Source: a bacterium (GTDB lineage: Bacteria; Zhuqueibacterota; Zhuqueibacteria; Oceanimicrobiales; Oceanimicrobiaceae). From it: a DNA stretch of 21,574 bases. This document shows, piece after piece, positions 2,120 through 20,549 of the stretch. The translations under genes and the position numbers were made by a program. Positions within the stretch are counted from its first letter, which is position 1. Each line of letters opens with the position of its first letter. The notes beneath the pieces are model-generated. The model was not told the DNA's origin and searched no databases. It saw only the letters and a program-made list of their open reading frames with translations. The stretch lies in contig JBHHXT010000070.1 of NCBI GenBank assembly GCA_046757165.1, positions 1 through 21,574 of the forward strand, written 5' to 3'.

Positions 2120-5100
2120 TTATCTCGCAACAAACTCCACCACCCGGCCGCGGACACCGCTGAGCCGTTTCAGCAGATAGAGCCTGGAAGCCGCGCCAAA
2201 ACCGCTCGTGCTGAAGCCATAGAAAGATCCGGTCGGAAAGTCAGCGCTCGGCGGCACGAGCGTGTCCAGGTAGACACCGTTTGGCTTGCAGATGTGAATG
2301 CCGTGCTGGTCAGCGATGTATAAAAAATCCTGTCGAATTCGGGCACGGGACTCGGCAGATTCCTGGCCCTGTTCCACAATGGCAATCCGGGTGGGATAGG
2401 TGAGTCTGATCTGCTGGCCGACATCATCCGGGCTGTTTCGTCCCGCAGAACCGAGCACGCGCACCACTTCGCCATCTCCGTTGCACTGCACGATGCGATG
2501 GTTGCCCCAGTCGACGATGTAGATGTGGCCACTCGAATTGACCGCGATGCCTTCCGGACTCTTCAGGGGGGGCTCCAGGCTGAGCGACAAAATCCCTTCC
2601 CGGGTACTGTTGAACTTGTTTGAATAGGTCCAGAGCGCGTTTTCCTGCGCATTGACGGCGAGAATGCGGTTGCCGGCCCGGTCCAGGGCACAATCCCGCA
2701 GCTCGATGAGATTCTCAAAATCCAACCGCAGTTGGGAGTCAGGAGCTAGAACGGGGAGTGTGTTCAAGACGTAATTGTCGTCCCAACGTGGGGCGAAAGC
2801 ATAGTCAAAATCATCCATGACCGTCTGCCCCTTATTCGTAACGACGAACTCCAACTTCTTGCTGAGCAATACCGTTTTCTTGTCCAGCCCTGGCTTGTCG
2901 AACACGTATGATTCTTTGAATTCGTAGCAGTGGGCGTTGGTAATGCTGAGCTGCAATTCAGCGTTGAGCGGGATGAATGTTTTGACATAGATGCCGCCCT
3001 TCTCCTGCAAAAGCTCGTCTCCCAGTTTGACCTGCACCTCGGAGTCGAGCTCGCCGGGCAGCACGACCTGCAGGTGCAGAGCGGAGGTGACCGCCCTCCG
3101 CAGCTCATCGAGGGCGTAGGGAGTGCGGGCAAAATAATTCTCATGCGCCAACGATGTGTTCTGCAGATGGTGTTGTGACGGGTAGAACTCTTTTTGTGGC
3201 AAACCGAACTGCATGAGCCACTCGACGCTTTCGCGTGCAAACTTGCTTTTCAGGAATTTCTCCTCTGCCAGCAGCTCGTAAGTCAACAGGTCGGGATGGC
3301 GCGCGGGCTGGAATTCAACCGTGGCGATACGAATGGAGTCGAGGACCGCCAGGCTGCCGCTGTCGTCCGAGGACTCGATGCCGGCGGTCGCATTGGCCAG
3401 CCAGAATTCGTCATAAAGGTAGTCCCCTTGTTGCAGCTTATGGATGATGGTTTCATAGCACTTTTTTGCGGCCCGGCCGTTGTTATCCAGACGGAAGATC
3501 TCCGCAAGATAAAACACCGCGCGCAAATATTTTTTCTCATTGATCAGCCGGATCAAGATCTCGGCAGCGGCATCGAATTCATCAGCAAAGAACAAACAGC
3601 GCGCGCGGACATAGTCGGCTTCGCTCTTGTTCTCATAGCCATCCCGTACGGCCCGCATCGTTTGTGCGGCGACCAGAAACTTGTCCATTTTTGCGAACAG
3701 CGTCTCCTGGATTTCCGCCTCCAGCGACTGCACGATGCCCTGGAAAAAGCGCGTGTCGTCGCGCAGTCTCAATTCCGTAATCCTGAACAACCGATGCAGC
3801 AGTTTGATGTACCGTTCCCGGGTCCTGCCGATGTTGAGAGCAGTTCTCGGCAAGAAGAAACGAATCGTGGCCAGCGTGAGCTGTAGTTTTTCTTCATCCG
3901 TTCCGGTCAGCACCTCTGACCAAATCCGGTCCGGGTTGCGCGTGACGCTGCTGTTGGCCAACAAGTTCAATTGCTCCGTTCGATTTCGGACTGTGCGATT
4001 CTGAGGGGCAAACCTCTGGAGATCGGCGACCAGCTCGCGCAATTTCCTTGTGTCGCCGGCGAGGTAGGTGGCTTCAAAGTCGAGCAGATACTTGCGGTAC
4101 CTCGCATCCTCGAGCAAGATCTGCTGCCGCCTGGTTCTTCGTCGTTCTGCCAGCTCGAGGCGCAGGAAGGAATCCAAACGCTGGCGACTGTGCTCCCTGG
4201 CCCCCTGCACCATCTGAAGGTACCCCAACCAGTAATCGGATTCAGGTTCGGCGCGAGCGGAATCGTAAAACGCCACCGCTAAATCGTTGAACTCCACCCC
4301 TTCAGCATCCGGGTGACTGTGCAGTAGATTTGCTCGTCTGAACAGTCGGGCCACGGCCAAATCCGGATGGCTCGTCCTGCGCCATACGCGCATAAACGCC
4401 TCCCGGTCCGCTGAGCTGCGCGTCAGGAAGTGTGTGTTCAGATGTCGATTCAAGTCCAGATAGGCAAGCGTAGAAGACCACCTCTTTTGGATCTCAGGCC
4501 TGTGCTCGAACAAGGAAGCGACCTTCAGATCTCGCAACAAAGAGAGGCACAAGTCGCGATGCTCGTTTGCCTTGTTGACCACCTCAGCGCTGTCAGAAAT
4601 CTGCAACGACAGCGCTTGATAGAATTTCGCAAAGGCAAACTTTAGCTGCTCCTGCTTGACGGCAACCAGGGCCTGTAGTTCAGCAAGATGGTGGGGGGAA
4701 GAGGGATCTGGTTTGAATTCAAGCAGGTGGCGGTACAGTGTCTGCATAGCCGCTTGCGAATTCAGGATCTCGTCCAGCGTCGCTGGTTGGCCTTCCTCAT
4801 CCAGGTACTTCAGAAAGGCCGCCGTCACACCCTTGACCTTGCTTTCCGCCGCCATGTAGGTGGAAAACATCTTGATGGAATCCGGCGCTTCCGGCGAGAA
4901 TGACATGAATTCGCCATGGGCGCGCAGAAATTTCTCCTCCGGATCCGCATCCAGTTCGGCCAGGCGATAGGAACACCAGCCGATCTTATACTTTGAATAG
5001 AAATAGTATTCGGTGAAGTCTCGTCGCAAGTCAGGGCTCTGGATGGCAAGCTTGAACTCTTCCCAGGCCTGCTCCAGGAAGGTCCTCACCTGGTCATCAT

Positions 5101-5335
5101 CCGTGTCGGTCAACGCTTTGTTGTAATAGCTTTCCGCGTAGAAATATCTGGCGAGCCCCTCCTCGCGGGGATTCGCTTCGATGAACCCGGGAACCATCAT
5201 AATCAGCGAATCATATTCGGCACGATTGTACAGATGGATCCCGCTGATAAACTCCTGGGCATTGGCCAACCCGCTTTGCAGCGCAAAACAGATAAGAAGC
5301 AGCACCCACTTCCGCAAACCCAAAGTCACCTCCAT
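2120..5335 (-). CDS. Large exported TPR/alpha-solenoid protein with a beta-sandwich (PEGA/carboxypeptidase-regulatory-like) domain and a C-terminal NHL beta-propeller (1071 aa)
   Basis: Start at ATG 5335, 2 nt after the upstream stop, gives the signal peptide MEVTLGLRKWVLLLICFALQSGLANA|QE. TPR-like motifs: ARYFYAESYY, DYWLGYLQMVQG, ADYVRARCLFFADEFDAA, AVFYLAEIFRLDNNGRAAKKCYE. NHL repeats: LKSPEGIAVNSSGHIYIVDWGNHRIVQ and LTYPTRIAI...LYIAD. Confidence 0.8.
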   Translation of the reverse strand: MEVTLGLRKWVLLLICFALQSGLANAQEFISGIHLYNRAEYDSLIMMVPGFIEANPREEGLARYFYAESYYNKALTDTDDDQVRTFLEQAWEEFKLAIQSPDLRRDFTEYYFYSKYKIGWCSYRLAELDADPEEKFLRAHGEFMSFSPEAPDSIKMFSTYMAAESKVKGVTAAFLKYLDEEGQPATLDEILNSQAAMQTLYRHLLEFKPDPSSPHHLAELQALVAVKQEQLKFAFAKFYQALSLQISDSAEVVNKANEHRDLCLSLLRDLKVASLFEHRPEIQKRWSSTLAYLDLNRHLNTHFLTRSSADREAFMRVWRRTSHPDLAVARLFRRANLLHSHPDAEGVEFNDLAVAFYDSARAEPESDYWLGYLQMVQGAREHSRQRLDSFLRLELAERRRTRRQQILLEDARYRKYLLDFEATYLAGDTRKLRELVADLQRFAPQNRTVRNRTEQLNLLANSSVTRNPDRIWSEVLTGTDEEKLQLTLATIRFFLPRTALNIGRTRERYIKLLHRLFRITELRLRDDTRFFQGIVQSLEAEIQETLFAKMDKFLVAAQTMRAVRDGYENKSEADYVRARCLFFADEFDAAAEILIRLINEKKYLRAVFYLAEIFRLDNNGRAAKKCYETIIHKLQQGDYLYDEFWLANATAGIESSDDSGSLAVLDSIRIATVEFQPARHPDLLTYELLAEEKFLKSKFARESVEWLMQFGLPQKEFYPSQHHLQNTSLAHENYFARTPYALDELRRAVTSALHLQVVLPGELDSEVQVKLGDELLQEKGGIYVKTFIPLNAELQLSITNAHCYEFKESYVFDKPGLDKKTVLLSKKLEFVVTNKGQTVMDDFDYAFAPRWDDNYVLNTLPVLAPDSQLRLDFENLIELRDCALDRAGNRILAVNAQENALWTYSNKFNSTREGILSLSLEPPLKSPEGIAVNSSGHIYIVDWGNHRIVQCNGDGEVVRVLGSAGRNSPDDVGQQIRLTYPTRIAIVEQGQESAESRARIRQDFLYIADQHGIHICKPNGVYLDTLVPPSADFPTGSFYGFSTSGFGAASRLYLLKRLSGVRGRVVEFVAR

Positions 5336-5337
5336 CG

Positions 5338-5937
5338 TTAATTTTCGCTCAAAATCTTGATGCTGTTGCTGTCGAGTCCCTTGACGAAGCACAGAATGCC
5401 ATCCTGGAGATGGTGATACGGGCCGATATATCTAAAGTTTTTTTGCATTCGTCGCAGATCGATTTGGACCTTCATGCTTTCCAGCCGTGTCGGCACGTTG
5501 AAGTAGTAGCGTATCGTTCCGGTGCGGTAAGGCGTAAATCGCCAGGAGCGCAAGACGGTCTGGATATACTGCCCGGCCTTGGGGTGACCGCGGTCACGCA
5601 GTTTCGTGATCATAAAACTGCCATTCTCGCCGATAGCGCCCTCGAGCATGACGTCTGCTCTTCTGTCCATTCGCTCCAGCAGCTCCCAGTCGATTGGCAG
5701 GGGATTGCGATTAAAATCGATTTCAAACTTCAGCACCTTCAGAGGAGGGCCAACGATTCTAATGCTCCGCGTCCCCGGTCGCTTCGGAACCGGGATCTCC
5801 TCGCGGTCGACTCTGACCGGAATGATCTTCTCGGTCTTGGGGATTTGTGACAGCAAAACATGGCGATACGCCAGCAAAGTGAGGATGCCCCCGAGAAACA
5901 CATAACCAGTTATTCGCAAAAATTTCTTGTTCATCAT
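5338..5937 (-). CDS. Short membrane-anchored TonB C-terminal-domain-like protein (putative energy transducer)
   Basis: N-terminal TM helix, short Pro/basic linker, then DVMLEGAIGENGSF...RDRGHPKAGQYIQTVLRSWRFTPY, which resembles the TonB_C pattern (V.l...I..dG...S.hp......v..WrF.P). It lies directly after exbB-exbD-exbD. Confidence 0.65.
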   Translation of the reverse strand: MMNKKFLRITGYVFLGGILTLLAYRHVLLSQIPKTEKIIPVRVDREEIPVPKRPGTRSIRIVGPPLKVLKFEIDFNRNPLPIDWELLERMDRRADVMLEGAIGENGSFMITKLRDRGHPKAGQYIQTVLRSWRFTPYRTGTIRYYFNVPTRLESMKVQIDLRRMQKNFRYIGPYHHLQDGILCFVKGLDSNSIKILSEN

Positions 5938-5939
5938 GA

Positions 5940-6503
5940 TTACAAATCGATTTGGATCACGTTACCGGCGACATGAATATTTCGACTATTTTTGATTTCT
6001 TCGATGGTGCCCGCAACACAGCCATACTCGAAGTTTGGCGCATCCACCAGCTTCTCTACAATCTTCGTGGCGTGGTGATACGGCAGATAGTCGGGACAAC
6101 GAATGAGAACAAAGTAATCCTTATTCGGCTGTTCCCTGGCGTCAGCGACGAGCTTGTAGATGCGCTGTTGCAGCGCGGCAGAATCCAGGGTCATCTTCTG
6201 CAACAAAACGTCCACCTTCGCCTCGGTGCTGAGCGCATTCCTGCGCTTATAGGTGTAATAGTTCAATGTATCGATAGCTGTATGGTCGACCCAGAGATAT
6301 TTCTGGTCATCCAGAATCTGCACCAGCACCTGTGCTTCCCCGGGCTCGTTTTTTGGCGTCGGAATGTAGAGGCGCGCCTCGCCCTTGGTGAGCTTGATCA
6401 GAATACTTGTGATGATGAAAAAAATAAGCAAAATGAAAATCAGGTCGATCAAGGAAATCATCTGGATCTTGCGATTTCCCAGAGAGAGTCTTCGAAATGC
6501 CAT
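5940..6503 (-). CDS. exbD: ExbD/TolR-family biopolymer transport protein (copy 2, 187 aa)
   Basis: TM motif ISLIDLIFILLIFFII with the conserved Asp, followed by IPTP and a periplasmic domain. Confidence 0.85.
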   Translation of the reverse strand: MAFRRLSLGNRKIQMISLIDLIFILLIFFIITSILIKLTKGEARLYIPTPKNEPGEAQVLVQILDDQKYLWVDHTAIDTLNYYTYKRRNALSTEAKVDVLLQKMTLDSAALQQRIYKLVADAREQPNKDYFVLIRCPDYLPYHHATKIVEKLVDAPNFEYGCVAGTIEEIKNSRNIHVAGNVIQIDL

Positions 6504-6516
6504 CTGGTTCGCCTAT

Positions 6517-7107
6517 CTAAAGCATGGTTCGAATAATAATCTGCGGTATCGCGTCCTGGTACATGCTGCACTGCTCCATGACAAAATTCAAGATTCTGAA
6601 CTCCGTATTTTGATCCGCCCGCACTTCAATGATGGGATGGCCGTTGCGCCGATAGAGGCGGTCCTTTGCGACATATCGCCGGATGGAATTCGTCAGCAAG
6701 GTGCAGGCCGGCAGGGTGACAAACGCCTCGGTGGGTAGCGCAAGAAAATCGGATGGAAATTTTGCAAAGGTGGAATCTTCCAAAGCGTGCTTGAAAGCCT
6801 GCCCGCGCGTCGTTTTCAAGGTGTCCCTGAACGAGGGCCACAAAACGTACGCCTTGCGCAGAATCTCCCCATCACTGGTGTCCGGCATGACTTGAATCAA
6901 AAGATTCTCCAGCGCGTCATTGCGAATAACGGGGAGTTGGGAGTCGGTTTTGGGCAGCTCCATGTCAGAGTAGACTTTCGATTCAGAAACGTCGCCGCTG
7001 ATAGAAAATGCAAAAGAGACCAGGAAGAATATCAGCAGCAGAAAGACCACATCGATCAAGCTCGTCAACTCCAGACTACGCGCACTTTCACGTCGTTCAA
7101 ACGGCAT
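6517..7107 (-). CDS. exbD: ExbD/TolR-family biopolymer transport protein (copy 1, 196 aa)
   Basis: Real start is ATG 7107 (MPFERR...), 2 nt after the exbB stop. Motifs LELTSLIDVVFLLLIFFLV, MELPKT and IEVRADQNTEF. Confidence 0.88.
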   Translation of the reverse strand: MPFERRESARSLELTSLIDVVFLLLIFFLVSFAFSISGDVSESKVYSDMELPKTDSQLPVIRNDALENLLIQVMPDTSDGEILRKAYVLWPSFRDTLKTTRGQAFKHALEDSTFAKFPSDFLALPTEAFVTLPACTLLTNSIRRYVAKDRLYRRNGHPIIEVRADQNTEFRILNFVMEQCSMYQDAIPQIIIRTML

Positions 7108-7109
7108 CT

Positions 7110-8774
7110 CTACAGCTTCTCCGTAATGGTGACATAGATCTCCTCCCACTTCGAGTAGATCCAGTCGAGCTTGTGCTTGTAGTAATAGTGCACCATGATA
7201 AAGAAAATACCGTTGGCCAGGCCAAAGATGGTTGTCCACAGCGCTTCGAATATGCCGTTGCTCAAGAGCTGGATGGTGCTGCCAAAATCCGGCACGGCAG
7301 AGGTTTTCGACAACTGTTGAAAGGCGAACGTAATGCCCGTTACCGTGCCAAACAGACCCACCAGGGGAGCCAGCGCGCCATAATTCCAGAACCACTCGAT
7401 TCTGGATTTCCGTTTCAACGTCTCGATTTCATTGGAAGCACGGTCCTCGAAGGCACGTTTGACTTCCTCAGTCGGTTTGGACCACCGGTACCCATTCATG
7501 CGATGAATTTTGAGCCCGGCATGAATGATTCGGCTGGTAGGAAACGGACGTAGTCCTTTCTTGAGGTCGAGCACGCCTTTCCTCAAAATCCATTTGCGAA
7601 ATCTCGAGATCGCTTTCTCGTCGGTGATGACCGGCTCATAGATTTCCTCGATCAGCCGCTTCATATCCTCCTTGGGCTGAAAATCATACTTCGGCCCATA
7701 GCCACCATTGCTGCCGTTGGCACTCTCCTCCAGCAACAGCTCATGAAAATTGTCCTCGATCTTGATCACCAATTCCGTCAGCAAATCATCTGGTGATTTG
7801 TGCTTGCCATTGATGAAGTTGTCTTCGGGGTAGGAAATGATGTCCTCAATCGTGGCGATGGCACGGTCGCCATCATGGGTCCAGTATTCCATGCAGGCGA
7901 CATCCACCGAGGCCATTTTTTCGGTTGAACTCAGCGCGCTCGGAATGCTCTTGACGGCCTGATCCGCGACCAGTTTGCTCTTGGCCGCGATCATTTCCCA
8001 CGCCTTCAGCACAAATTTGAATTTGTTGGTCAAGCGGTTTTCGTAAGAGGAATCACAACTGAGAGACAGCGACCAGAAGACATTTTTGGCCGACCGCCGG
8101 TACGGAAATATGTTGCCGAGATAGAGTGTGCGCGAGGAATAGAACAGCAGAATCACACAACTCAACACAGCGGTGATAGACAAGAACATGAAGGCGAGTT
8201 TCCCAAGCGCGGTGGACTGGTCGTAGATATTCGCCTTGCCGATGGTGGCCAGTTGCCACCTGCCCGGATGGAAATAGTAAAAGAGTGATTTCTCGGCGAG
8301 CGCCGCATCTTTCGGGTCCTGGCCTTTGCCGATAACAATGGAGGCCATGGCGGACTCCGCCACGAGCTCGGAATTGGCGCCGTAGGCGCGCACCCTGAAT
8401 GAGAGGTGCTGACCGACCTTCATGTTCAGGAAATCGGCGTGGTTGTCCTGCTCGATTTTCCGGACCTGAGTCGCCGTTTTTGAATCTCCATCATACACAG
8501 ACACCTGGTATGTGAATGGGAGGTTCTTGGGGTCTTTGATCAACTCTCTTTTCTGGTCGTTGCTGACATCCTGAACTGTAATAGTCCAGCTTAGACGCAG
8601 ATCGACCGCGGTTGGCACACGCAACCAGTTCTTGTGTACTTTTTGATATTCAATGTCCTCCAGCACAACTTGATAATTTTTCGTAGCTGCGTCATTCTGC
8701 GCGGCCAGCCCCCCCGGACGACTTGTTGTCAATAAGATCAACACCCCCGCAGCAGCAAACTTTAGCCTTTTCAT
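7110..8774 (-). CDS. exbB: MotA/TolQ/ExbB proton-channel family protein, enlarged (554 aa) with signal peptide, FN3-like domain and long cytoplasmic insertion
   Basis: C-terminal channel motifs GALAPLVGLFGTVTGI and GIFEALWTTIFGL; TM1 at about aa 193-212; N-terminal signal peptide (LAA|Q). Confidence 0.88.
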   Translation of the reverse strand: MKRLKFAAAGVLILLTTSRPGGLAAQNDAATKNYQVVLEDIEYQKVHKNWLRVPTAVDLRLSWTITVQDVSNDQKRELIKDPKNLPFTYQVSVYDGDSKTATQVRKIEQDNHADFLNMKVGQHLSFRVRAYGANSELVAESAMASIVIGKGQDPKDAALAEKSLFYYFHPGRWQLATIGKANIYDQSTALGKLAFMFLSITAVLSCVILLFYSSRTLYLGNIFPYRRSAKNVFWSLSLSCDSSYENRLTNKFKFVLKAWEMIAAKSKLVADQAVKSIPSALSSTEKMASVDVACMEYWTHDGDRAIATIEDIISYPEDNFINGKHKSPDDLLTELVIKIEDNFHELLLEESANGSNGGYGPKYDFQPKEDMKRLIEEIYEPVITDEKAISRFRKWILRKGVLDLKKGLRPFPTSRIIHAGLKIHRMNGYRWSKPTEEVKRAFEDRASNEIETLKRKSRIEWFWNYGALAPLVGLFGTVTGITFAFQQLSKTSAVPDFGSTIQLLSNGIFEALWTTIFGLANGIFFIMVHYYYKHKLDWIYSKWEEIYVTITEKL

Positions 8775-8818
8775 AGCATCAACACCTCAATTTGTCGTAA
8801 TCATTAAGTAAGTAACGA

Positions 8819-10927
8819 TTATCTGTAATTGAATGTATAGAACTCTTCCATCAACGTGCCGTTGGAAAATGTTTTGATGTAAGATTTGATCATTTTCAAC
8901 ACCAGCGCATCTAGACTATCATACTGCTCCTTTCTCTGGTACTCAATCAAGTCTGTCAAAATGTGATTGCCATTTGTCAGGAACCGTGCAAGGTCGGATG
9001 TTGGGAAAAAGCGCGGAATCTTCGCGAATTCATCGATAAACTCTCCAGACCTCCTTTGTAGTGAGAGTTTGTACATCGAGGCCGCGCGCAAGAAAAGAAT
9101 TTCATCGCCAAAGGTGCAATCGTTGGTGATCGGCACGTAGATATGCTCCGGGAATCTTGAATCATTCATGTCGATGTCGCGCAGGCTCGCAAGGGCATCA
9201 TTGTAATTGCCTTCCAGAAAGAACATATGGCCCTGCAAAAACTTCGCAACGCTGCTGTGACTCAGTTTCTGCCGGATCACATTGATCGCGGCCGCCTCAT
9301 TGTCATTTGCATACAACGCATAGGCGTAAAGATAGCTGAGATAATCAGAGGCTGCCTGGTGCTTCTCACCGCTAAACTCACTTGAAAAATCAATCCTCCG
9401 CCCCCAGGATTTGCCGCCATCGCCGCTGACCGCCACTGCCAGCTCGTGATTTCCCGATAGAATCAGAGACTGGACGAAATAGAGGAAGGAGCGAAAGTAC
9501 GCCTCCCTGTCGATTTCCGACTTGCCGTAGTCCATCACCAGATGTCGGTTGGCCTCTTCCTGGTATCGCCGGGCTATCTGGTCAAATTTCCGGCCAGACT
9601 TTCGCAGCGGCACCTCATCGGTCCGCCTGGAATCCTGCTGCGTCCCCAGCTCCGCAAGGAAACTCAAATCTGCGCTCCGCAATGCCGCCTCATATCGGTA
9701 GGCGCGATTTCCAGGATTCTTGGCCTCACGAGCGTTTTTCAAGTAAAGAGATAGTCTATCCACATTCTCGAGGGCGCGTACGTCATGGCAGGCGGGGTTC
9801 TGAAACAGCGCATTGGCATTCAGGTACCAGTATCTTGCCGTGAATGGGTTGCGGTCGACAGAAAGTGAATAGCGCGCACCTATCGCATCGAAGCTGCCAC
9901 GGTCTTTCGCGTAGGTCCAATCTCCAGACGGCACCCAATCCTGATCGAGCAGGCTCTCGGGGCTGAAATGAATGCCAAATGTAAACGATTCATGTTTCGA
10001 GTTCACGCCGAATCGGAGCTGAACCGGCAGGCCCGCGTCGATGTAAGAGAGATCGTACTGGACCCCAAACATCACCTCTTTGTCGCGGCCGGGCGGCGTA
10101 ATGACCCCGTAGTCAAATGAGAGCACGAGCCCATGCAGTCGGCCAAAGGGCGGCGTAAAAGAGACGCCCAGAACGCCGTTTGCCGGTATCGGGTCCCCTT
10201 TCAGACCCGAATCGGATGAGAATCTGGAGCCATTGAAATCACGCAGTACGAAACCGGCGTTGAACAGACCTGAGAGATGCGCATACTTGAAGCCCACATC
10301 CAGAGTGGTGGCAGACCCGCTCAGGCCAAATACATCTTGCCGGACAAACTTGGTCGTAAGTCCCATATCGAGATCCCCTTTCAGGAACCTGGCCCAGTCA
10401 AACATCCCCGGTGGTGTGATTCTCTTCAGCACCATATTCAGCGGATAGGAAGCTGAAACATAGATGGCCGACTCCGCCACTGAATTTTGTGCCGGGTCCT
10501 CATCTCTGACAGCGTCGTCACCATAGACCTCGAACTCACCCAGCGAATGCCACACGACGCCGAGGCCGAGCTTGAGGTCCTGCAAGGTGTTGATCAACGA
10601 GCTGCCACCCTGGTGTTTGGTAAAAAACAAGCGCAACGGAATGGCGCCGCCCAGATAGTTGATCGACGCGCCCTCGCGCAAGGGCAGATGCATGAACATC
10701 ACCGTGCCGCCGATTTTGGAAAGCGCTGAAAGGCCGGCAGGATTCCAGTAAATGGCACTGGCGTCGTCGGAGATAGAAGTAAACGCTCTGCCCAGGCCCA
10801 GCGCCTTGGCCCCCACGCCCGAACGCAGGAATTCACCGGCCTGCCCGGCCCCGCCCTGAGAATAGGCCGGGATGGCCAGCAACGACTGAAGCCAAAGGAA
10901 AAGGATTAGTGCACGGTTGAGCATCAT
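8819..10927 (-). CDS. PorV-family (FadL-superfamily) outer-membrane beta-barrel fused to a C-terminal TPR-like region (702 aa)
   Basis: Signal peptide, then GQAGEFLRSGVGAKALGLGRAFTSISDDASAIYWNPAGL (PorV/FadL-type N-terminal motif). Amphipathic beta-strands run to about aa 358, followed by about 340 aa of helical/TPR-like sequence (AKFLQGHMFFLEGNYNDAL; FAKIPRFFPTSDLA). Confidence 0.82.
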   Translation of the reverse strand: MMLNRALILFLWLQSLLAIPAYSQGGAGQAGEFLRSGVGAKALGLGRAFTSISDDASAIYWNPAGLSALSKIGGTVMFMHLPLREGASINYLGGAIPLRLFFTKHQGGSSLINTLQDLKLGLGVVWHSLGEFEVYGDDAVRDEDPAQNSVAESAIYVSASYPLNMVLKRITPPGMFDWARFLKGDLDMGLTTKFVRQDVFGLSGSATTLDVGFKYAHLSGLFNAGFVLRDFNGSRFSSDSGLKGDPIPANGVLGVSFTPPFGRLHGLVLSFDYGVITPPGRDKEVMFGVQYDLSYIDAGLPVQLRFGVNSKHESFTFGIHFSPESLLDQDWVPSGDWTYAKDRGSFDAIGARYSLSVDRNPFTARYWYLNANALFQNPACHDVRALENVDRLSLYLKNAREAKNPGNRAYRYEAALRSADLSFLAELGTQQDSRRTDEVPLRKSGRKFDQIARRYQEEANRHLVMDYGKSEIDREAYFRSFLYFVQSLILSGNHELAVAVSGDGGKSWGRRIDFSSEFSGEKHQAASDYLSYLYAYALYANDNEAAAINVIRQKLSHSSVAKFLQGHMFFLEGNYNDALASLRDIDMNDSRFPEHIYVPITNDCTFGDEILFLRAASMYKLSLQRRSGEFIDEFAKIPRFFPTSDLARFLTNGNHILTDLIEYQRKEQYDSLDALVLKMIKSYIKTFSNGTLMEEFYTFNYR

Positions 10928-10977
10928 AACCCCGTTGTCAAGTTCCGTTCTGGCACCTCAGCGAAAGCAGCACCCCT

Positions 10978-13947
10978 TCACTGGCCGTGCTTTACGACCC
11001 CGATCTTGAACCGCGCCCTCGTCTTGGTGCCGATGCAAATATAGCCCCCGTTGGCCACCATCCTACCGTTTCCGTTTCGCCCGTCCCATATGAAATCCCG
11101 CGAGGTCTCTTTCTCGCGAATCGCTCTAACCAGATTGCCGAAAAAATCGTAGATCTTGATTTCCGTTTCCTGCGGGCTGTGCAGTCGAATCGTCACCCCA
11201 CCCTGCATCGGATTGAACGGGTTCGGATAAGCAAACATCGCCGGCAGCTTATCCTGCAGAAAAAACCTCAGATTGCTTGCCTCACTCTTGTTGCCAGCGC
11301 CGTCGACCACCTGAACAGAAAAGTCGATCCCGACCGGTCGTTTTGCGCTGGATTGAATTCCGTACGGAAGCATCTCATCAACGCGCGGCAACGAGTCCCG
11401 GAAGGCAACCGTTTGCTCCGGCAGATCGTTTTCCCGAATCACATAGTCCCATATCTCACCGTTTTGCAGGTCATGCGCGACCAGATGCAACCGGATGTCA
11501 GGGGAAAACACCCAGATCTTTCCCTTCAAGCTCTCCCCATCCGGCAAGGTCAGACGGTCGATAACTGGCGGCGAGTCATCCTGGACGGAAAACACCACCT
11601 TAGAAACCACGCGGCGCTGCTGGAAATCGATTCCCTCCAGCCAGTAGCAGTACCTTTGCCCGTCCCGCAGCTCATCGAACTCATGACACGTGAGAGACGA
11701 CCCGGGACTCTCGATGACAACAGAATCCTCTGCAACCAAGTCGCAGTTTGCGTCCAGAAAAACTTGCGCGGAAACCAGGGCACCCGAGATCCTCCAGCAC
11801 ACCTTATTTGACAACCCCTTCGTAAACTTCCGCATCGACTGAATCTCAATTCGTGAGCTTCCAACGTACTCACACCTGTCCCTTCCGCCATCAGTCTGAA
11901 CATGACCGACCGAGTCGAACGGTTGCACCTGGTAAGTGAACTGCCGACTGGGCGTATCGTCAGAAAACAGGTCTTCATATCTCAGGACGTTGGGTCCGAC
12001 GGTCGCAATCGTGCTATCTTCCCGCAACAAATGATAGCCAGCCAAACCACTGCAATTTCCCGGATCAGAGGATGCGCTCCACGTCAGCTCGATGCCATTT
12101 GCACTGGTTAGCTGCTCGCAGTTAAAGGTCTCGACAGAATCGGGTCCGGTATCGTCAAGCCGCAAGGTGATCTGACTCAATCCGCTTGGGTTGTCTGCGG
12201 CGTCGACAACCCACACGGACAGGTCGATCGGCACACAAGCCTCCGAGGTCAGGGGATAAGCCAAAGTGGTATCGATATGCTCGACGGTCGGGTCCAAAGC
12301 AAAGGTAGACTTTGGCTCTCCGTTCTCAAACACTTCGATCAATTTGATTTTCCCCGGTGAAAAATCCCGGGCGGCAATCTTGATGGCGATGTTTCGACGG
12401 TCCACCCAGTTTCGGTTCCCGAGCAGGATGCGGTTTTCGACCTGTAAGGTGCTGATTTCCGGAAACGAGGCATCCTGGATTGACGAGACCGTATCGGAAA
12501 AAACCGGTCTCTGCTGGCGGTCCTCTGCCTCGACCCAGAAGGAATAGGTGCTGCCATCAACCAGACCCTGGAATGTGAAGCACGTGTCTGAGACAGTGTG
12601 CCTGACAGCACTTTCGAAATCGCCATCGCGCGCGATAAAAACCGAAAAGGAGTCGATCTGCGAGGAACCGGTCCAGCAGACCTGGTTTGAATTGCCGGCT
12701 GTGTATTCGGGCTCCGGCAGGATGGTCAGGCGTGTAAACTTGTTGTAGGGACAATTGGCTGTTCCTCCCACCCGCTGGATCGTGCCAAGCGAATCAAATG
12801 GCTGAATCTGATAGACAAGCTCCATGTCCGGCGTATCCGCGGAGAAGTTATCGTCATAAAGTGTCTCCGACGGCGGCAGGATGGTGATGAGGTCACCATC
12901 TCTCGAGACACGGTAGCCGGCCAGGCCAATTCCTGTACCATCACTGGAGGCCGTCCAGCTTAGCCGGATGCTGTTCTGAATCTGCTGGCAGTTCAGCTCA
13001 ACGGCCCGGGGCGGTGAGGTGTCGATGTAGATGGTCACATGGGCTGCCGCATCTTCTGCTGGCTGACCGCCATTGCCGGCGAGCCGAAAATCTGGAAAAC
13101 GGCTTTCGGGCGTATGGCTCGCATCCCTGCCTTCGACGCGGAAGTCGTAGCATCCGTCGGGCAAGTCTTGCAGAAACATAACAGAAGCTGTCGGTGCGAA
13201 TTCATGGCCCAATGGGGTCAGATTGCCGGGAAAAACCGTATCCGCCACTATGCTTTGCCAGCCAGATTCCTGGCAACTGCGCCGGTACAAGAAGGCTTGC
13301 CAAACGCCAGCCTCGTCCTGCAACCGTGCGTTGACGCGAAATGAGGAGTAGTTCCACCAGTGCGGAACGGAGGTGGAATCCAATTGCGGAATCCGGATAT
13401 CCGCCACGCCCGGTGCCTGCGAGTCCTGAATCGACCAAACGGTGTCAGCATGGGGGCTGCAATGCAGCTCGAGCTCGCTGCTGTCTACAATAGCATCGCA
13501 CTTCAGTTTGCAGACTGGCAAGAACAAAGCGATGCTGTACGAATATTGATTGCCTTGCTGCAAACCGTTCATGGTCTCGAATTGTAACGAATCCACAGTC
13601 AAATCAACGGGTCTCGGGAAACTCAGCACATTATCATCGCCTGCGTTGCGGGCAAACGTAATCACAAACGGGCCCTTGACGCTGTCCGGAGGGAACGGCA
13701 GAGTGGCCACCGGCGGAAGTTGAAACCAAATCGTGTTCGAGGTGCCCTGGGTGTAGCGAGGCTCGGGGAGCAGCTTCGGGGCTGGCACATCCTCGATACA
13801 ACTGCTCAAATCGAGGCTGCGGAACGCCCGCAAAAACTCAGGCAGAGGAGTGTCACGCTTGTCCGTGGCCGATTGTGCCTGAAGCCACTGCGCAGGCAGC
13901 GCGACAGCAAGGATCATGATAGCTGTTTTGAGCTTGGTGTTGTGCAA
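10978..13947 (-). CDS. Secreted Cys-rich FN3/Ig-repeat protein with a T9SS-like/FlgD-Ig C-terminal domain (989 aa)
   Basis: TTG start with an AGGAG SD; signal peptide LQA|Q; FN3 motifs (LSWTASSD..GLAGYRVSRDG); C-terminus AYPNPFNP...IKIYDFFGNLVR...WDGRNGNGRMVANGGY...KIGVVK. Confidence 0.85.
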   Translation of the reverse strand: MHNTKLKTAIMILAVALPAQWLQAQSATDKRDTPLPEFLRAFRSLDLSSCIEDVPAPKLLPEPRYTQGTSNTIWFQLPPVATLPFPPDSVKGPFVITFARNAGDDNVLSFPRPVDLTVDSLQFETMNGLQQGNQYSYSIALFLPVCKLKCDAIVDSSELELHCSPHADTVWSIQDSQAPGVADIRIPQLDSTSVPHWWNYSSFRVNARLQDEAGVWQAFLYRRSCQESGWQSIVADTVFPGNLTPLGHEFAPTASVMFLQDLPDGCYDFRVEGRDASHTPESRFPDFRLAGNGGQPAEDAAAHVTIYIDTSPPRAVELNCQQIQNSIRLSWTASSDGTGIGLAGYRVSRDGDLITILPPSETLYDDNFSADTPDMELVYQIQPFDSLGTIQRVGGTANCPYNKFTRLTILPEPEYTAGNSNQVCWTGSSQIDSFSVFIARDGDFESAVRHTVSDTCFTFQGLVDGSTYSFWVEAEDRQQRPVFSDTVSSIQDASFPEISTLQVENRILLGNRNWVDRRNIAIKIAARDFSPGKIKLIEVFENGEPKSTFALDPTVEHIDTTLAYPLTSEACVPIDLSVWVVDAADNPSGLSQITLRLDDTGPDSVETFNCEQLTSANGIELTWSASSDPGNCSGLAGYHLLREDSTIATVGPNVLRYEDLFSDDTPSRQFTYQVQPFDSVGHVQTDGGRDRCEYVGSSRIEIQSMRKFTKGLSNKVCWRISGALVSAQVFLDANCDLVAEDSVVIESPGSSLTCHEFDELRDGQRYCYWLEGIDFQQRRVVSKVVFSVQDDSPPVIDRLTLPDGESLKGKIWVFSPDIRLHLVAHDLQNGEIWDYVIRENDLPEQTVAFRDSLPRVDEMLPYGIQSSAKRPVGIDFSVQVVDGAGNKSEASNLRFFLQDKLPAMFAYPNPFNPMQGGVTIRLHSPQETEIKIYDFFGNLVRAIREKETSRDFIWDGRNGNGRMVANGGYICIGTKTRARFKIGVVKHGQ
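11257..13023 (-). repeat. Intragenic tandem duplication of a ~290-300-aa three-domain unit (aa ~309-597 and ~598-897), visible at protein level
   Basis: LNCQQIQNSIRLSWTASSD/FNCEQLTSANGIELTWSASSD; FSADTP..YQIQPFDSLG/FSDDTP..YQVQPFDSVG; SNQVCW/SNKVCW; SIQDASFP/SVQDDSPP; IDLSVWVVDAADN/IDFSVQVVDGAGN. Confidence 0.85.
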
Positions 13948-13977
13948 AGTCAGGCTCTCCTCTCGGTCCTAATCCCT

Positions 13978-16900
13978 TCACTTGACCAGGATCATCTTCT
14001 GTGAGGCGATGAAATCATGGACGCGGATTCTGTAAAAGTAGACACCACTCCCGACGATGTTGCCGCGATCATCGCGTCCGTTCCACACGACCGAATAATG
14101 AGACGGTGGTTTTTCTTCATCCACCAGGGTGCGAATTCTCTGGCCGGCGATGTTAAAAATCTCTATCACCACTCGCGCGACGCCTGTTTCAAGAACAGGA
14201 ATCGCATAGCGAATGGTCGTTGACGGATTGAACGGGTTAGGATAATTTTGTTGCAAAGCAAATTGCAGTGGCAAGAGCCCCATACTCGCCACACCAAAGG
14301 TTGTCAGCAGGCCGTTGCCTGTCAGATCACAGAAAAAAGTATCGGACCAGGCGCTTTCGATCTCTCCTGCCCGCGCCTTCACCCGCCAAAAGATGCCATC
14401 CCACGGCACGGTGAAATTGTAACACAGCGTGTCTAACGGGCCGGCGGTTTCGTTGGTCAGGGCGTTTCCAAACAAAGAGGCGAAACGCGCTCCTTCTACA
14501 AAATAGAAAATATCAAGATCCTCGACGCTGCCATGGGCGGCCTGCCAGCAGACCGTCGTGTCGTTCAAACACCAGCCGGAGTCCGGCGCGCTCACCGTGT
14601 GAGGCACCGTACAGCCATTCGACAATTGCTGGCGATTGCCAACACTGTCGACACCGTAGATGCGCCATTCAAGGCCTAAGAAGGTCTCATCAGTCGCAAT
14701 GTTGCGGTCGACAAATGTATGCACCGACGCCCGGCTGGTGTCGGCTGCAATAACCGAATCATCCCTGGCAATCTGATAAAACCAAACGCCGCTACAGTTG
14801 TCGTTGACATCCTGCCAACTAATGTGGACATCAACCTTGCCCGGGCCGCCGAAAAGCGGCGCTTTGACCGAATCCACCACACACGTCGCGACCAGCGGTG
14901 GAATTTCGTCATAGTTCCCGGCAAGCGAGCCCAGCTCCGGGTATTCCGTGGACCACGGCGAAATATGCCCCCATGGGTCCTTTGCCCTGATCCTGGCATA
15001 AAGTCGAACATTCTGATCGTTGACAAAATTGTAGTCTGCATCGCGCTCAAAGGTATAGGAACGACTCAAACTGAGCCGCCTCTCACTGACCATGGGCTCG
15101 AAATTCGCATCAATGCTAAGTTGTACAATGACGCTATCGGCACCGAAACTCTCATCGCCCGGCACCAGGTTATCATCAACCCAGGCCCATTCGATGGTGA
15201 CGCTATCGCGAAAGCACTGCGGCGTAAACTTGACAATGTTGGGCGTAAAAACCCAACGCGGGCTAAAACTGGCGGTTTTCGTGTCACCAGTCGGAGAATG
15301 CTGTCCCAGAGAGTCAATCGCGATCACATTGAACCCATACGTTTTGGAGATATCCAAACCCTGCACCAGGATCGTATCCGTAGCTTGCACATGAAAGGAA
15401 TCAGCCACAGGTGCGAAGTCGTCGGTTGCGTATTTGATCAAGAAGGTATCTACGGCATCCAATGTATCTAACCAGGCAACAAAGACCCTGCCTGTGGCCG
15501 AATCGGGGTGCACGGGCAAAGCTTGTACTTCGAAAGATACTGGCGGTGGTAGATTCTTGAAAGGGACAATAATTGTACCAGACCAGCCGCTTTCAAAAAT
15601 ATCCGAGCACGCCTGCCCCAGGTCATCGAGGATGATTTCCTTGACCGTGAAAAAATAATTGTGCTTCGGCTCCGGACTTATCAGGGTGTAGCAGGTGCTG
15701 TTGAAGGTCGTTGCTGAATCGATAGGCTGGGGGGAAACGGAATCCTGGTAGACGAGCACGATGGTCTGAAACATATCGTCTTCCTTGACGCGTGGCGTCG
15801 GCCGGGTCCAGCAGACCGCGATACTGTCATCATACACCCGGCTTTCTACAATTGTGGGAGGATGATTGGAGTACTGCGACACCACTGTATCGTCGCTCGA
15901 GACCAGGCCAAAGCAATCCCATGCCCGAACCATGTAAAAATTACACTGGTAACCCACCAGGTTGTCCTGTTCAAAGTCATGCACCCACTGTGTGACGTGA
16001 CCCGGAAGCACCGCTTTTGGCGCGTCCGGGGGCGCTTCGCCTTCCTTCCACGTAAAAACCTCGAACCGCTCAATCTCCATCATATCTGGATGGGACCAGC
16101 TCAGCATAATGTCGCCGCTCGGCTTGCTATCCTGAGCAGCCGTTAGATTCTGTACGCCTTGTAGCGTGACCTTTCTTCGTATCGTGATCGTGTTGGAAAA
16201 AATCGTCGTATCGCGGTTGGCATAGAACGCGCGAACGCGAATATCATACACCCCGTCCCCGGCGTCGAGCGGGCAGGTCACCTCGGTGACCTGCGTGTCG
16301 AAGAGAATCTTGCTCTCCTTGGAAGAATCCGGTTTGCGCACTTCGACTTCATAGCCCGAAATGTCGGTGTTGTTGAACTCTTGCCAGAAAACCGTAATGC
16401 TGTCGCTCGTGATGCGGGTCGGACCGGCGGGACAGGTCATGATTTGCGTGGTATCATATTGAATGGTCGGACCGATAAGGGCGCGGATACGAGCCTGATG
16501 GGATGAGTTGTCAGCGCTTCGAATGTTGCTGACATTGTCGACCGAGCCGACCTTGTAGAGAACGATTTTGTTTGCGCGAAAATTGGACAGCGAATCGCAG
16601 TAGCTGGCCTGGCTGCCGTCCACCGTATCGATGGCAGAGAACCCTTCATCTGCGCCCTCATCTTTGCGATAGATGATGAAAGACTTGACCCCGCTAACGA
16701 GGTCAGTTGCACCGCTCCATGACAACTGGTTACACCCCTTGTTGCCATTGTCGAAACGAATAGATTCAACGCTCAAACTGGCGACATCATCCGGAGGGAA
16801 CGCGTCCGGAATCGCGTCCACAACCTGTGACCATACGCTGGTATTGCCAAAGACGTCCTTGGCACGTATGCGGTAGAAATACTGCTGCCCGTTGACAAAA

Positions 16901-18696
16901 TTCGGGCTGCTGCCACTCGGCAGCAGCTCAAACAGATAACAAGACTTGCGTGCCAGGTCCTCGACATCAATCCATCCGCTATCAAAAAACCTGACTCCGA
17001 AGTCATCGGGATCATCGGAATCAAACAAATCCACCGAGTGGCGGGCTGCCTGAAACCGCAGCGAATCCGTATCCCGGAATCCGACGCAATTCGAATCGCT
17101 CAGCGGATCCTGAATGCATATTTCGTTTGCAAGCCCTTTGCTAAAGCGAACGCCAGATAGGCTTTCGAACGTGAACCACTGTGTTGGAATCGGCTTGCAG
17201 TGTCCGTTCAAATCGATGACGATAGGCGCCGATTCCACGCCCTCAGCAATATTGCCGACCGCGTCGATGGTCGAGATCTTGTACTTGAAGGTGTTTAGAT
17301 CGTTCTCGGGCCCAAGGAAGTCCGCATAATCGATCCAGTTCGTGGCGAGATAGGGCAAGACTGCATCTGCAGGGAGCACGAAGACCACATACATCTTCGG
17401 TCGCTTGCGCTTGATGCCAATCCCCCTGGCAAAATTTCCGCCCAATGTTATCTTTCCTGCCGAAAAGATGCTCTTGCTTTTGAACAGACGCAGCTTGCCA
17501 TTCATCATTTCGATCTTCTGAGTGGTCTGCTCAAAGTCCGCTGCCAGCCAATCCGGCGCCGAGGTATTGCGGCTGTCGAAATCGAAGGCCACGAACAGCC
17601 AGGCGTCTGCTTCCAGCGTGAACGACAGAAACTCGTCGCTCTCGTTCCATCGGTCTTGAATCGCCGTTTTGATGAGCGCAGCCTGCTCCAGCTCAGCCGG
17701 CATGAGCTCGATCTTGAACTCACTTCCTATCTGACCGGAGAAAAGCGAATCGCCGCTGTCAACGTACAGGTCCTGCCCCTCCGTCGCCCGAACCGGATAG
17801 TAATTCGGTGGCTGGATGCTGCTGACCGGGAAAAACGGGATGGTGTCGACGGGAGCAAACCGCGTGTTGGTGTTTACCTGTCTGCGATAAACGATGTATC
17901 GCTCGATCAAGCTCACCTCATCCTGGAGATAAGGCCAGCGCAAATTGACGGCACCTTCCCGGCTGACCCAAAACTGACTAATCCGGGTAATCGGTGGCGG
18001 CGACTGATCTTGCACCGAATAGACGAAATTCGAACGTAACGTCAGACCGGACGGTGTTTCAGCCTCAAGATAATAACCGAAGCGCTCGCCTTCAGGGAGA
18101 TCTTCGAACACACGGCACGAATCCAGATCAGTCAGAAGCCGCAGGGGAGTAGGAGCGCCTGCGCCAGGTTGGCCCTGGGTTCGCATATCATTGAACCGGA
18201 TTAGCTCATATCTAAACTCATCTTCAAACGGCTGCCAGCACACGAGGTTGGAGCTCCCTCTGGAATAGGGCGGCTCTGGCAGCACCTTGGGAATGATATG
18301 AATCCTGACTTTTCGGCTTCTTTCATCGATCAGTTCTCCATTGTTCGACAACTTTGCATACACATCGAAAGAGTAGTCGCCGTAGTCCAGGCTCGTCGGT
18401 ATGACAACCAGCGTATCGACGAGCTGACACCCCCGGCGGCACACGACCTTTTTCGAATCCCACCCGAGGACAAAGGAGGGTTTTACCCCCGTAATTCTTA
18501 GTTCTAGCGTCCCGACGCCTTGAGCTTCGGCCGAGACCACAATTCGCGTGGCTTCGTTTGGCCGAAGGTGGGCGTTTAGATCGCCAACTAAGCTAAAGCG
18601 AACGATTTCGTTAGTTTGGCCGGGAAAAAGCTGGGTCGGAATGATACCAAGCAGGATGGCGGCAAGAACCCCCCTCAGGTGTCGATGTCGGATCAT
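13978..18696 (-). CDS. Large secreted Cys-rich multi-FN3 surface protein with a T9SS type-A-like/FlgD-Ig C-terminal sorting domain (1572 aa)
   Basis: AGGA SD plus ATG; signal peptide; many FN3-like repeats (e.g. YFYRIRAKDVFGNTSVWS, YGFNVIAIDSLGQHS); C-terminus FALQQNYPNPFNPSTTIRY...IFNIAGQRIRTLV...WNGRDDRGNIVGSGVYFYRI...SQKMILVK. Confidence 0.88.
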   Translation of the reverse strand: MIRHRHLRGVLAAILLGIIPTQLFPGQTNEIVRFSLVGDLNAHLRPNEATRIVVSAEAQGVGTLELRITGVKPSFVLGWDSKKVVCRRGCQLVDTLVVIPTSLDYGDYSFDVYAKLSNNGELIDERSRKVRIHIIPKVLPEPPYSRGSSNLVCWQPFEDEFRYELIRFNDMRTQGQPGAGAPTPLRLLTDLDSCRVFEDLPEGERFGYYLEAETPSGLTLRSNFVYSVQDQSPPPITRISQFWVSREGAVNLRWPYLQDEVSLIERYIVYRRQVNTNTRFAPVDTIPFFPVSSIQPPNYYPVRATEGQDLYVDSGDSLFSGQIGSEFKIELMPAELEQAALIKTAIQDRWNESDEFLSFTLEADAWLFVAFDFDSRNTSAPDWLAADFEQTTQKIEMMNGKLRLFKSKSIFSAGKITLGGNFARGIGIKRKRPKMYVVFVLPADAVLPYLATNWIDYADFLGPENDLNTFKYKISTIDAVGNIAEGVESAPIVIDLNGHCKPIPTQWFTFESLSGVRFSKGLANEICIQDPLSDSNCVGFRDTDSLRFQAARHSVDLFDSDDPDDFGVRFFDSGWIDVEDLARKSCYLFELLPSGSSPNFVNGQQYFYRIRAKDVFGNTSVWSQVVDAIPDAFPPDDVASLSVESIRFDNGNKGCNQLSWSGATDLVSGVKSFIIYRKDEGADEGFSAIDTVDGSQASYCDSLSNFRANKIVLYKVGSVDNVSNIRSADNSSHQARIRALIGPTIQYDTTQIMTCPAGPTRITSDSITVFWQEFNNTDISGYEVEVRKPDSSKESKILFDTQVTEVTCPLDAGDGVYDIRVRAFYANRDTTIFSNTITIRRKVTLQGVQNLTAAQDSKPSGDIMLSWSHPDMMEIERFEVFTWKEGEAPPDAPKAVLPGHVTQWVHDFEQDNLVGYQCNFYMVRAWDCFGLVSSDDTVVSQYSNHPPTIVESRVYDDSIAVCWTRPTPRVKEDDMFQTIVLVYQDSVSPQPIDSATTFNSTCYTLISPEPKHNYFFTVKEIILDDLGQACSDIFESGWSGTIIVPFKNLPPPVSFEVQALPVHPDSATGRVFVAWLDTLDAVDTFLIKYATDDFAPVADSFHVQATDTILVQGLDISKTYGFNVIAIDSLGQHSPTGDTKTASFSPRWVFTPNIVKFTPQCFRDSVTIEWAWVDDNLVPGDESFGADSVIVQLSIDANFEPMVSERRLSLSRSYTFERDADYNFVNDQNVRLYARIRAKDPWGHISPWSTEYPELGSLAGNYDEIPPLVATCVVDSVKAPLFGGPGKVDVHISWQDVNDNCSGVWFYQIARDDSVIAADTSRASVHTFVDRNIATDETFLGLEWRIYGVDSVGNRQQLSNGCTVPHTVSAPDSGWCLNDTTVCWQAAHGSVEDLDIFYFVEGARFASLFGNALTNETAGPLDTLCYNFTVPWDGIFWRVKARAGEIESAWSDTFFCDLTGNGLLTTFGVASMGLLPLQFALQQNYPNPFNPSTTIRYAIPVLETGVARVVIEIFNIAGQRIRTLVDEEKPPSHYSVVWNGRDDRGNIVGSGVYFYRIRVHDFIASQKMILVK

Positions 18697-18997
18697 GGCT
18701 GTTTCCTATGCACGCTGTCAACAAAGTGCACACTCCCCCTGTTTAGTTAGAAGCAAACGTGTCCAATAGATGCGAATTACGTTCATTCCAGTCCATAGCC
18801 ACAAACCTCAGGCCTCCCCCACCTTGAGTGTCTTAACAAAACAGTCAGAGAATAATATTACCGACCTCACAAAGATTTAGATAAAGCAACTCTGCCCGCC
18901 ATTCCAGTAATATCTCATCTGGCCATTTCTTGGCGGGAAGACAGACTTTTTGAAGAATATACCCTGGTTGAGACAGTTTGGTCTAAAAACGAGAATC

Positions 18998-19026
18998 AAT
19001 ATATAACTATTACGCAATATAGTCAA
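18998..19026 (-). promoter_or_regulatory. Near-consensus sigma70 promoter for the eight-gene envelope operon (TTGACT-N17-TATATT)
   Basis: -35 at 19021-19026 and -10 at 18998-19003, each 5/6 to consensus, with an optimal 17-nt spacer. This predicts a TSS near 18991 and a leader of about 295 nt. Confidence 0.7.
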
Positions 19027-20491: not shown

Positions 20492-20549
20492 TTTGCTCCA
20501 GCTCTTCACTAGAAACGTCGTCCTGCAGGTAAAAAGAGTTTAGCTTTCT

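Follow-up and report, generated by a model that had tools for sequence, protein, structure and literature searches.

The stretch of DNA analysed here, an entire contig of 21,574 nucleotides (JBHHXT010000070.1, referred to as the window), belongs to a 6.1-Mb, 99.98% complete genome, most likely of the phylum KSB1, and carries an eight-gene operon that unites a motor of the ExbB/ExbD/ExbD/TonB type with an outer-membrane barrel and cargo proteins of type IX secretion systems (T9SS). An earlier note, made from the sequence of the window, had proposed this association as a candidate envelope machine, and comparative analyses now reveal a conserved and dedicated unit in this lineage of the FCB group (Fibrobacterota, Chlorobiota, Bacteroidota). 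In this operon, the genes of a T9SS carrier and its cargo are directly linked to those of an ExbB/TolQ-type motor. Predicting function from its genes, we tentatively suggest that the proton-driven motor serves a dedicated chain that exerts force on a carrier barrel, which would hold an Fn3 adhesin complex at the cell surface.

Composition of the operon

The genes, labelled A to H in operon order, are all located on the minus strand, from 18696 to 2120 (Table 1). The open reading frames (ORFs) bear out the eight co-directional genes described in the earlier note, with gaps of 30, 50, 44, 2, 13, 2 and 2 nt (using 7107 as the start of the first ExbD gene, E, and 5335 as that of the last gene, H) and three stop-NN-ATG junctions within the operon; they are presumably transcribed together as a single transcript. 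The domain identities first given to A, B, D, E, F and H also agree with our searches: both A and B contain Fn3 domains and a T9SS C-terminal domain (CTD), D is matched by MotA_ExbB, each of E and F by ExbD, and H by NHL.

Table 1. Features of the operon and its promoter in the window
Feature	Description	Coordinates	Strand	Evidence
A	Secreted Fn3/Ig-like chain with CTD, 1572 aa	13978..18696	-	Domain searches, orthologues in the phylum
B	Fn3/Ig protein with operon-specific CTD subtype, 989 aa	10978..13947	-	Domain searches, CTD model
C	PorV/FadL-fold barrel with TPR-like tail	8819..10927	-	Profile, structure model, fold search
D	Enlarged ExbB/TolQ-type subunit, 554 aa	7110..8774	-	MotA_ExbB match, channel residues, tree
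E	ExbD/TolR-type subunit, first of two, 196 aa; carries the membrane Asp	6517..7107	-	ExbD match
F	ExbD/TolR-type subunit, second of two, 187 aa; carries the membrane Asp	5940..6503	-	ExbD match
G	TonB-like transducer, 199 aa	5338..5937	-	ESM-Atlas, TonB_C match of a homologue
H	Signal-peptide TPR/beta-sandwich/NHL protein, 1071 aa	2120..5335	-	Domain search, structure model
Promoter	Sigma-70-type promoter with inverted repeat	18997..19054	-	TTGACT at 19026, TATATT at 18998; conservation

Conservation and distribution in KSB1

Gene order was compared in 60 regions picked by matches to D or H, from which the host's other barrel locus was left out; the resulting 59 loci, all from KSB1, test order and not prevalence. 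The order barrel-ExbB-ExbD-ExbD-G slot-H is intact in 47 of them and ten more agree with the core order up to the end of their contig, as would be expected of the unit first proposed. In four of the 47 intact loci the G slot is occupied by a protein unscored by the G profile, one of which passes Pfam TonB_C. At least 13 families retain the link between cargo, barrel and motor, which also persists through duplications, several genomes harbouring duplicate operons, and the clade of ExbBs to which D belongs (see below) was not observed without the barrel where the contig extends far enough. The absence of a linked TonB-dependent receptor also holds, both in the window by domain search and among the 72 neighbour and operon proteins scanned in related loci, a set that comprises part of the flanking ORFs. 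No enzyme, ABC or catabolic gene is kept beside the operon, its flanks varying among loci.

Full-length D is encoded by 16 of the 20 same-family genomes, with 60-76% identity. The H profile matches 69 of the 167 phylum genomes at E<=1e-12, four weak matches being to NHL only, and 63 at E<=1e-50, while a divergent form of the operon with two ExbBs is found in four further genomes; overall, the operon is present in about 63-67 of the 167 genomes (~40%). An ExbB from a KSB1 record is 61% identical to D over its length, and the close named homologues of G and D are labelled KSB1 or Calditrichaeota, which makes KSB1 the most likely phylum of the host. Homologues of H extend, by record name, to Zixibacteria; wider scans returned predominantly ordinary ExbB/TolQ proteins in genomes and generic NHL proteins in metagenomes. 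Besides the second ExbB of some loci, variants include an additional gene of 350-390 aa that separates barrel and ExbB; in 14 of 15 cases these genes are related to one another, they have no family match, and an Fn3 domain and a small barrel were recognized in them by eye. Two-gene inserts (a membrane/TPR-like protein and a barrel-ended protein) were observed in the operons of L062:4732-7871, L063:7040-10533 and L064:7374-11511. Cargo, barrel or H genes are split or frameshifted in L043, L050, L052, L069, L088, L097 and L099, by assembly error or by decay, which look alike here.

The motor and its putative transducer

D is composed of a signal peptide, a periplasmic Fn3-like domain, a first transmembrane helix, a cytoplasmic region of about 200 aa and a second and third transmembrane helix; among the matches listed, fn3 was retrieved in 3 of 120 D homologues. 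The residues characteristic of 5:2 motors, the Asp of ExbD and the Thr/Glu/Thr of ExbB, are present in D, E and F, those of D being T477, E510 and T515. Among relatives, the membrane Asp is present in all 68 ExbD frames matched by the pattern, which missed 41 further frames, and the channel Glu in 41 of 62 ExbB frames.

The ExbBs linked to barrels group together in a quick tree of 106 rows (63 rows, SH-aLRT 99) and again, paralogous copies included, in a careful tree of 46 rows (13 rows, support 100/99). Left aside in this careful tree were MotA-like rows, fragmentary sequences, the host locus L009 with its long branch and, where a locus has two ExbBs, the second of them. The barrel-linked ExbBs form a clade of their own outside the ordinary ExbB clades, a point on which the earlier note had made its proposal depend. 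AglR-like ExbBs form a separate clade of 8 rows (100/99) in the careful tree, and a sister relationship between the two clades is not rejected (p-AU 0.29); the AglR-like label is given by neighbouring GltG-like genes and an ExbD motif, in a tree that does not contain the AglR of M. xanthus.

G consists of an N-terminal membrane anchor, a short Pro-containing linker with a PxRPG motif and a TonB-C-like domain. It has no Pfam or relevant NCBIfam match, its three best ESM-Atlas matches are TonB_C clusters at 0.92, and one of its homologues passes the TonB_C cut-off. In two-ExbB loci, the first ExbB bears an N-terminal G-like domain (hhalign 97%, E 1e-10), a fusion which ties this domain to the motor. 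The TonB-C-like fold initially attributed to G is consequently retained, its own Pfam match and the SxxxH motif discussed below being absent.

Probable cargo, carrier barrel and scaffold

The two cargo proteins differ in their CTDs. A, which contains 25 Cys and has an orthologue retained across the phylum, carries a generic type A CTD that passes TIGR04183 (28.1 vs a cut-off of 23); its residues about 290-445 constitute a lineage-specific insert, whose ESM-Atlas matches are all under 0.9. B passes FlgD_ig and fails TIGR04183, and its relatives range from 357 to 2177 aa, yet keep a distinct CTD. A model of this CTD was trained on 19 loci from other families, the B of the window being outside the training set. 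Of every protein tail in the host, it gives this B the highest score (92 bits, the next scoring 72), and in all 17 held-out loci from the same family it picks the gene preceding the barrel; A appears ordinary under the same model, at rank 48 among the 145 host tails scoring 40 or more. From these sequence patterns, B is probably the cognate cargo of barrel C. Pfam and NCBIfam domain searches found no catalytic domain in A or B. A paralogous A-B pair lies at a contig end elsewhere in the host (L222:1-6260, G000:C192) and probably marks a further operon copy that the assembly truncated.

The structure model of C (pLDDT 78, pTM 0.76) displays a 14-strand barrel (about residues 24-360) followed by a helical TPR-like tail of 340 aa, the barrel being in keeping with the PorV/PorQ family, which is defined by 14 strands and an N-terminal hatch. 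The top Foldseek matches of C are PorV within the T9SS translocon, and PorV_fam (NF033709) is matched at E<=1e-5 by 36 of 37 C homologues. The membership of the PorV family proposed for C therefore stands as a PorV-like fold, whereas C itself scores 65 bits, under the curated cut-off of 90, and ties between PorV (8gl6_F, Z 25.0, root-mean-square deviation 3.7, 279 aligned residues) and FadL (Z 25.1). The structural matches of the tail are TPR proteins, the CpoB/YbgF TPR model being matched weakly by 7 of 37 barrel tails, and within the host genome this tail family is confined to operon barrels. Because the number of strands is even, the modelled tail would face the periplasm.

The model of H (pLDDT 85) comprises a helical TPR solenoid (about 30-660), a beta-sandwich (750-840) and an NHL propeller (860-1071); domain searches gave an NHL match and weak TPR matches, and fold searches generic TPR and NHL matches only. 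Since G is too short to span to the outer membrane alone, this modelled protein is probably a periplasmic strut. The earlier note had also called for predicted interfaces between motor or TPR parts and the barrel. With the tail of C as partner of H 565-1071 and G 48-199, complex prediction scored 0.57 (runs 0.57, 0.54 and 0.63) vs 0.00 for the best of three controls, one of which had H replaced; the runs share at least 93% of contacts with a partner pLDDT of at least 71. The mark for this score is reached by 116 of 157 solved vs 2 of 215 mismatched pairs, and the prediction is graded weak because the range at 0.60 or under holds only 18 of these solved pairs and both mismatches. The models thus weakly suggest that the tail of C contacts the C-terminal half of H, and say nothing on G.

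Promoter and flanking genes

The near-consensus promoter reported in the earlier note, TTGACT-17-TATATT at 19026-18998 upstream of A, is the top site of a window promoter scan whose total is itself at chance level (16 sites vs 12.9 +/- 3.5 expected), and finds its support in conservation: the site and the inverted repeat flanking it are kept in 8 of 8 aligned upstream regions from eight genomes. A matrix built from 7 relatives, with the window site excluded, gives this promoter 74.8 bits and the next site of the genome 28.2, its matches being same-family loci only. The inverted repeat, ACGCAA...TTGCGT, surrounds the -35 box and is likely an operator judging from its sequence; the repeat pair is present only once in the host genome and provides no clue to a regulon. 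An Rfam scan gave nothing at gathering score, and no riboswitch. Upstream, TrkA/potassium-channel and short-chain dehydrogenase/reductase genes (19439-21353) adjoin the operon in many same-family genomes only, and downstream a MarR/GbsR-like regulator and a zinc dehydrogenase (18-1934) are not conserved.

T9SS components and other motors of the host

The T9SS genes that the earlier note had suggested looking for are present in part. SprA (TIGR04189) is over its cut-off in the host and in 163 of the 167 phylum genomes, and the host PorU reaches 844 bits vs a cut-off of 420. The host has no match to the GldL and GldM models TIGR03517 or TIGR03513, and GldM (PF12081) is over cut-off in none of the 167 genomes, a Bacteroidota genome used as positive control being matched; the GldN model gave no match in the host or in the positive control of that search. 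About 150 host proteins end in a CTD according to our own profile, and 16 PorV-family barrels other than C are at or over the cut-off. No motor gene lies within three neighbours on each side of these 16 barrels, pairs of cargo and PorV without a motor being common in this genome. The host also displays 47 receptor matches over cut-off, elsewhere in the genome. Triplets of receptor, CTD protein and PorV on its contigs C10, C49, C72, C114 and C119 (G000) possibly encode PorV-anchored surface binding proteins replacing SusD.

Nine loci of the MotA/ExbB family, partly read by eye, were found in the host: a flagellar stator, a second Mot-like pair, Tol-Pal (tol-pal-like genes on a separate contig, by eye), two plain ExbBD-TonB, two Glt-like, the operon studied here and another barrel-linked motor. 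The Glt-like core, located in L183 (G000:C87:6507-17319) and L184 (G000:C10:599-3550), comprises a GltC-like protein, a giant TPR protein with a weak PorW/SprE match, a small protein, an ExbB, two ExbDs and a GltG-like protein, and L183 matches the GltG, GltC and myxo_SS_tail models. A GltG-like gene is present in all 113 near-complete phylum genomes, which makes it as widespread as SprA, and in several lies within about 30 kb of sprA; this core is a candidate for the general energiser of the T9SS where GldLM is missing.

Other arrangements were observed beside these. The second barrel-linked motor (L100:7332-18732, G000:C89), whose ExbB falls outside the operon clade, is ordered TPR, type B-like CTD cargo (FG-GAP/Ig), PorP/SprF-like barrel with a C-terminal extension, 433-aa ExbB, two ExbDs, 357-aa membrane-anchored protein and TPR. 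In L217, L218 and L219 (family f6), an M28 peptidase gene, exbB and exbD come after sprA on one strand, with tonB added in two of these three loci. PorV-family barrels with long C-terminal extensions each follow a CTD cargo in L188:3962-7225 and L189:8637-10592; one of them has OmpA-like domains, and that of L189 is followed by an RsbW/phosphatase/TPR signalling protein.

Proposed function and alternative explanations

In the arrangement that we tentatively favour, D would associate with the unlike ExbDs E and F into a 5:2-type motor, its family being well supported and its activity suggested by the retained channel residues. G, whose fold is supported, would relay the force onward, and H would serve as periplasmic strut, its C-terminal half possibly docking on the TPR tail of C as weakly predicted. 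C would be a private PorV-like carrier holding B at the surface by the special CTD of this cargo once B has crossed the shared pore, SprA, as suggested by the specificity of the CTD and by the cognate pairs of Bacteroidota. There, carriers encoded beside their cargo set its fate, moving or static (PMC12618676). A, an Fn3 filament whose CTD is ordinary, would take the common export route and, as co-conservation suggests, join B. The motor would then move, tension or release the adhesin-like complex, and Ton-type parts would take over the role that GldLM and the track play for SprB-SprF, a system in which periplasmic tails attach both SprF, the adhesin carrier, and PorG, an 8-strand barrel, to the moving track (PMC12635249).

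Several observations weigh against this proposal. The operon encodes no track protein or directional element. None of 40 G homologues has in its membrane helix the SxxxH motif that is essential for the contact of TolA and TonB with the motor (PMC12204202), and G is devoid of the cytoplasmic domain of GltG and GltJ (PMC11761067). The barrel of C is structurally as near to FadL as to PorV, H and the motor genes are separated in 2 of the 59 loci, and the Agl-Glt core alone is reported not to drive motility (PMC3169522). FliF is encoded by 21 of 48 genomes with the operon vs 19 of 65 without, in a cross-count where related genomes are not independent; a replacement of flagella by the operon was rejected as there is no anti-correlation with FliF. 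Force on a displayed complex is nevertheless ranked over extraction from SprA, uptake, envelope building or the lack of any physical link, because SprA, unlike the operon, is nearly universal in the phylum and the other carriers of the host have no adjoining motor.

The same force could, with low probability, be spent on secretion, the motor pulling loaded C-B from SprA and replacing the missing GldLM-GldKN chain for this cargo. The release of the carrier-substrate complex from SprA is indeed the energy-requiring step of the T9SS (PMC10994853), SprA is found in 163 of the 167 genomes vs none for GldM over cut-off, and the second barrel-linked motor of the host has as neighbours a cargo of type B and a barrel resembling PorP/SprF. 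However, the 16 other PorV-family barrels without adjoining motor and the about 150 CTD proteins of the host imply that another energiser must exist, a GltG-like gene occurs in 113 of 113 near-complete genomes, and an operon restricted to about 63-67 of 167 genomes, ~40%, is not the general T9SS engine. A general T9SS motor of the lineage was rejected as principal explanation on this same comparison with SprA, and such a role of the operon is unlikely. Uptake appears less probable still: A and B would capture a substrate and the motor would open a FadL-like hatch of C or serve a receptor encoded elsewhere, as the tie of C between FadL and PorV and the 47 receptor matches of the genome would allow. 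PorV-held cargo often goes with import, since 5 of the 9 inspected host receptor loci are ordered receptor-CTD cargo-PorV, but the lack of a receptor among the 72 scanned proteins, of any enzyme, ABC or catabolic gene kept alongside and of a riboswitch, together with the two plain ExbBD-TonB operons that the host already has, argue against it.

Even more doubtful is an envelope-building or tethering machine comparable to Tol-Pal or Nfs, positioning C and the Fn3 proteins for a surface layer or for outer-membrane management. It would fit the weak CpoB/YbgF matches of 7 of 37 barrel tails, a conserved, Cys-rich and structural-looking A, and the propeller of H, which we take by analogy to resemble TolB and PorE; the host, however, has a separate Tol-Pal, the operon encodes no peptidoglycan-binding domain, and its distribution is patchy and sometimes duplicated. 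Least probable in our view is a mere co-regulation of physically separate modules, a cargo-carrier pair beside an unrelated motor-TPR module. Motor-less cargo-PorV pairs are common in the host, H is detached in 2 loci and the complex score falls within the weak range, whereas the link is kept over at least 13 families and through duplications, the tail family is exclusive to these barrels and the motor clade is not found without the barrel where the contig extends.

A phylum with SprA and without GldM match, in which the host has PorU and about 150 CTD proteins, raises the question of how carriers get pulled off SprA, and the operon provides a compact eight-gene system for asking whether Ton-type motors work on T9SS carriers. 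With it, the outputs of the 5:2 motor family, so far uptake, Tol-Pal and Agl-Glt, would be extended by a new one. A broader scenario, which we consider improbable, is that it constitutes a third, independently assembled way of moving adhesins, in which a Ton-family motor would drive a PorV-like carrier and its Fn3 filament either along the outer membrane or into it, and members of KSB1 and Zixibacteria would thereby glide or adhere in a retractile manner. Taken with the Glt-like core, which is universal, this mechanism would demonstrate that non-Bacteroidota T9SS are run by ExbB/TolQ-type motors, GldLM being a later replacement.

Comparison with known systems

No paper on this operon was found in a literature search to which subscription papers were mostly external and which did not extend to supplements. 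The T9SS has been considered to occur possibly in other FCB phyla (PMC11285876), an ExbB-ExbD-ExbD-TonB cluster of Fibrobacter was read as an import system without receptor found, as far as the available part of that source goes (PMC6851124), and, within the same limit, no Bacteroidetes-type gliding genes were found in Caldithrix (PMC5317091). A partial resemblance exists with the TPR-tolQ-tolR-tolR-vWA operons of unknown function (PMC12204202), which also combine two unlike TolR-type subunits with a TPR gene; their vWA head carries an SHLS motif that the TonB-C-like transducer lacks, and the available text on them does not mention PorV and reports no CTD cargo.

With ExbB-ExbD-TonB, the operon shares the motor family, the channel residues and the TonB-C-like domain. 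It differs by the absence of a receptor, the two unlike ExbDs, a G without SxxxH, the large scaffold H and an ExbB that bears a signal peptide and a periplasmic domain. Domain searches found no TolB or OmpA/Pal domain in the operon.

The likeness to the Agl-Glt core complex (AglR/Q/S, GltC/D/E/G; Luciano 2011, PMC3169522) and the Myxococcus gliding machine had led the earlier note to recognize their parts list here. Shared are a single TolQ-like subunit alongside a pair of TolR-like ones, a transducer of the TonB-C type, a long protein with TPRs, barrels in the outer membrane, to which some operon loci add a small barrel gene, and a surface protein. This is an analogy, descent being unsupported: no protein of the window matches gliding_Glt or myxo_SS_tail at E<=0.1, the operon ExbB is twice as long and lies outside the AglR-like clade, and the host has a separate Glt-like core, for which reasons membership was rejected. 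G moreover has neither FHA nor a long disordered arm, the barrel has a 14-strand PorV fold, and the cargo is T9SS-tagged, whereas Myxococcus uses the lipoprotein CglB.

The cargo-carrier pairs of Bacteroidota (SprB-SprF on the GldJKN track, PG1035-PorP-PorE) similarly have a CTD cargo gene directly before its own carrier barrel and a carrier with a periplasmic C-terminal part, and the host of the operon has SprA and PorU. The barrel of the operon is however PorV-like instead of PorP/SprF-like, with a 340-aa TPR tail vs a short Cys tail, its host has no GldL/M/N match, its motor belongs to the ExbB/TolQ family, and H has no lipid anchor or OmpA domain. The operon fits the definition of neither the T9SS energy chain nor Agl-Glt, Ton or Tol-Pal; the principle it would follow, that of motor-driven trans-envelope machines, is nevertheless a known one.

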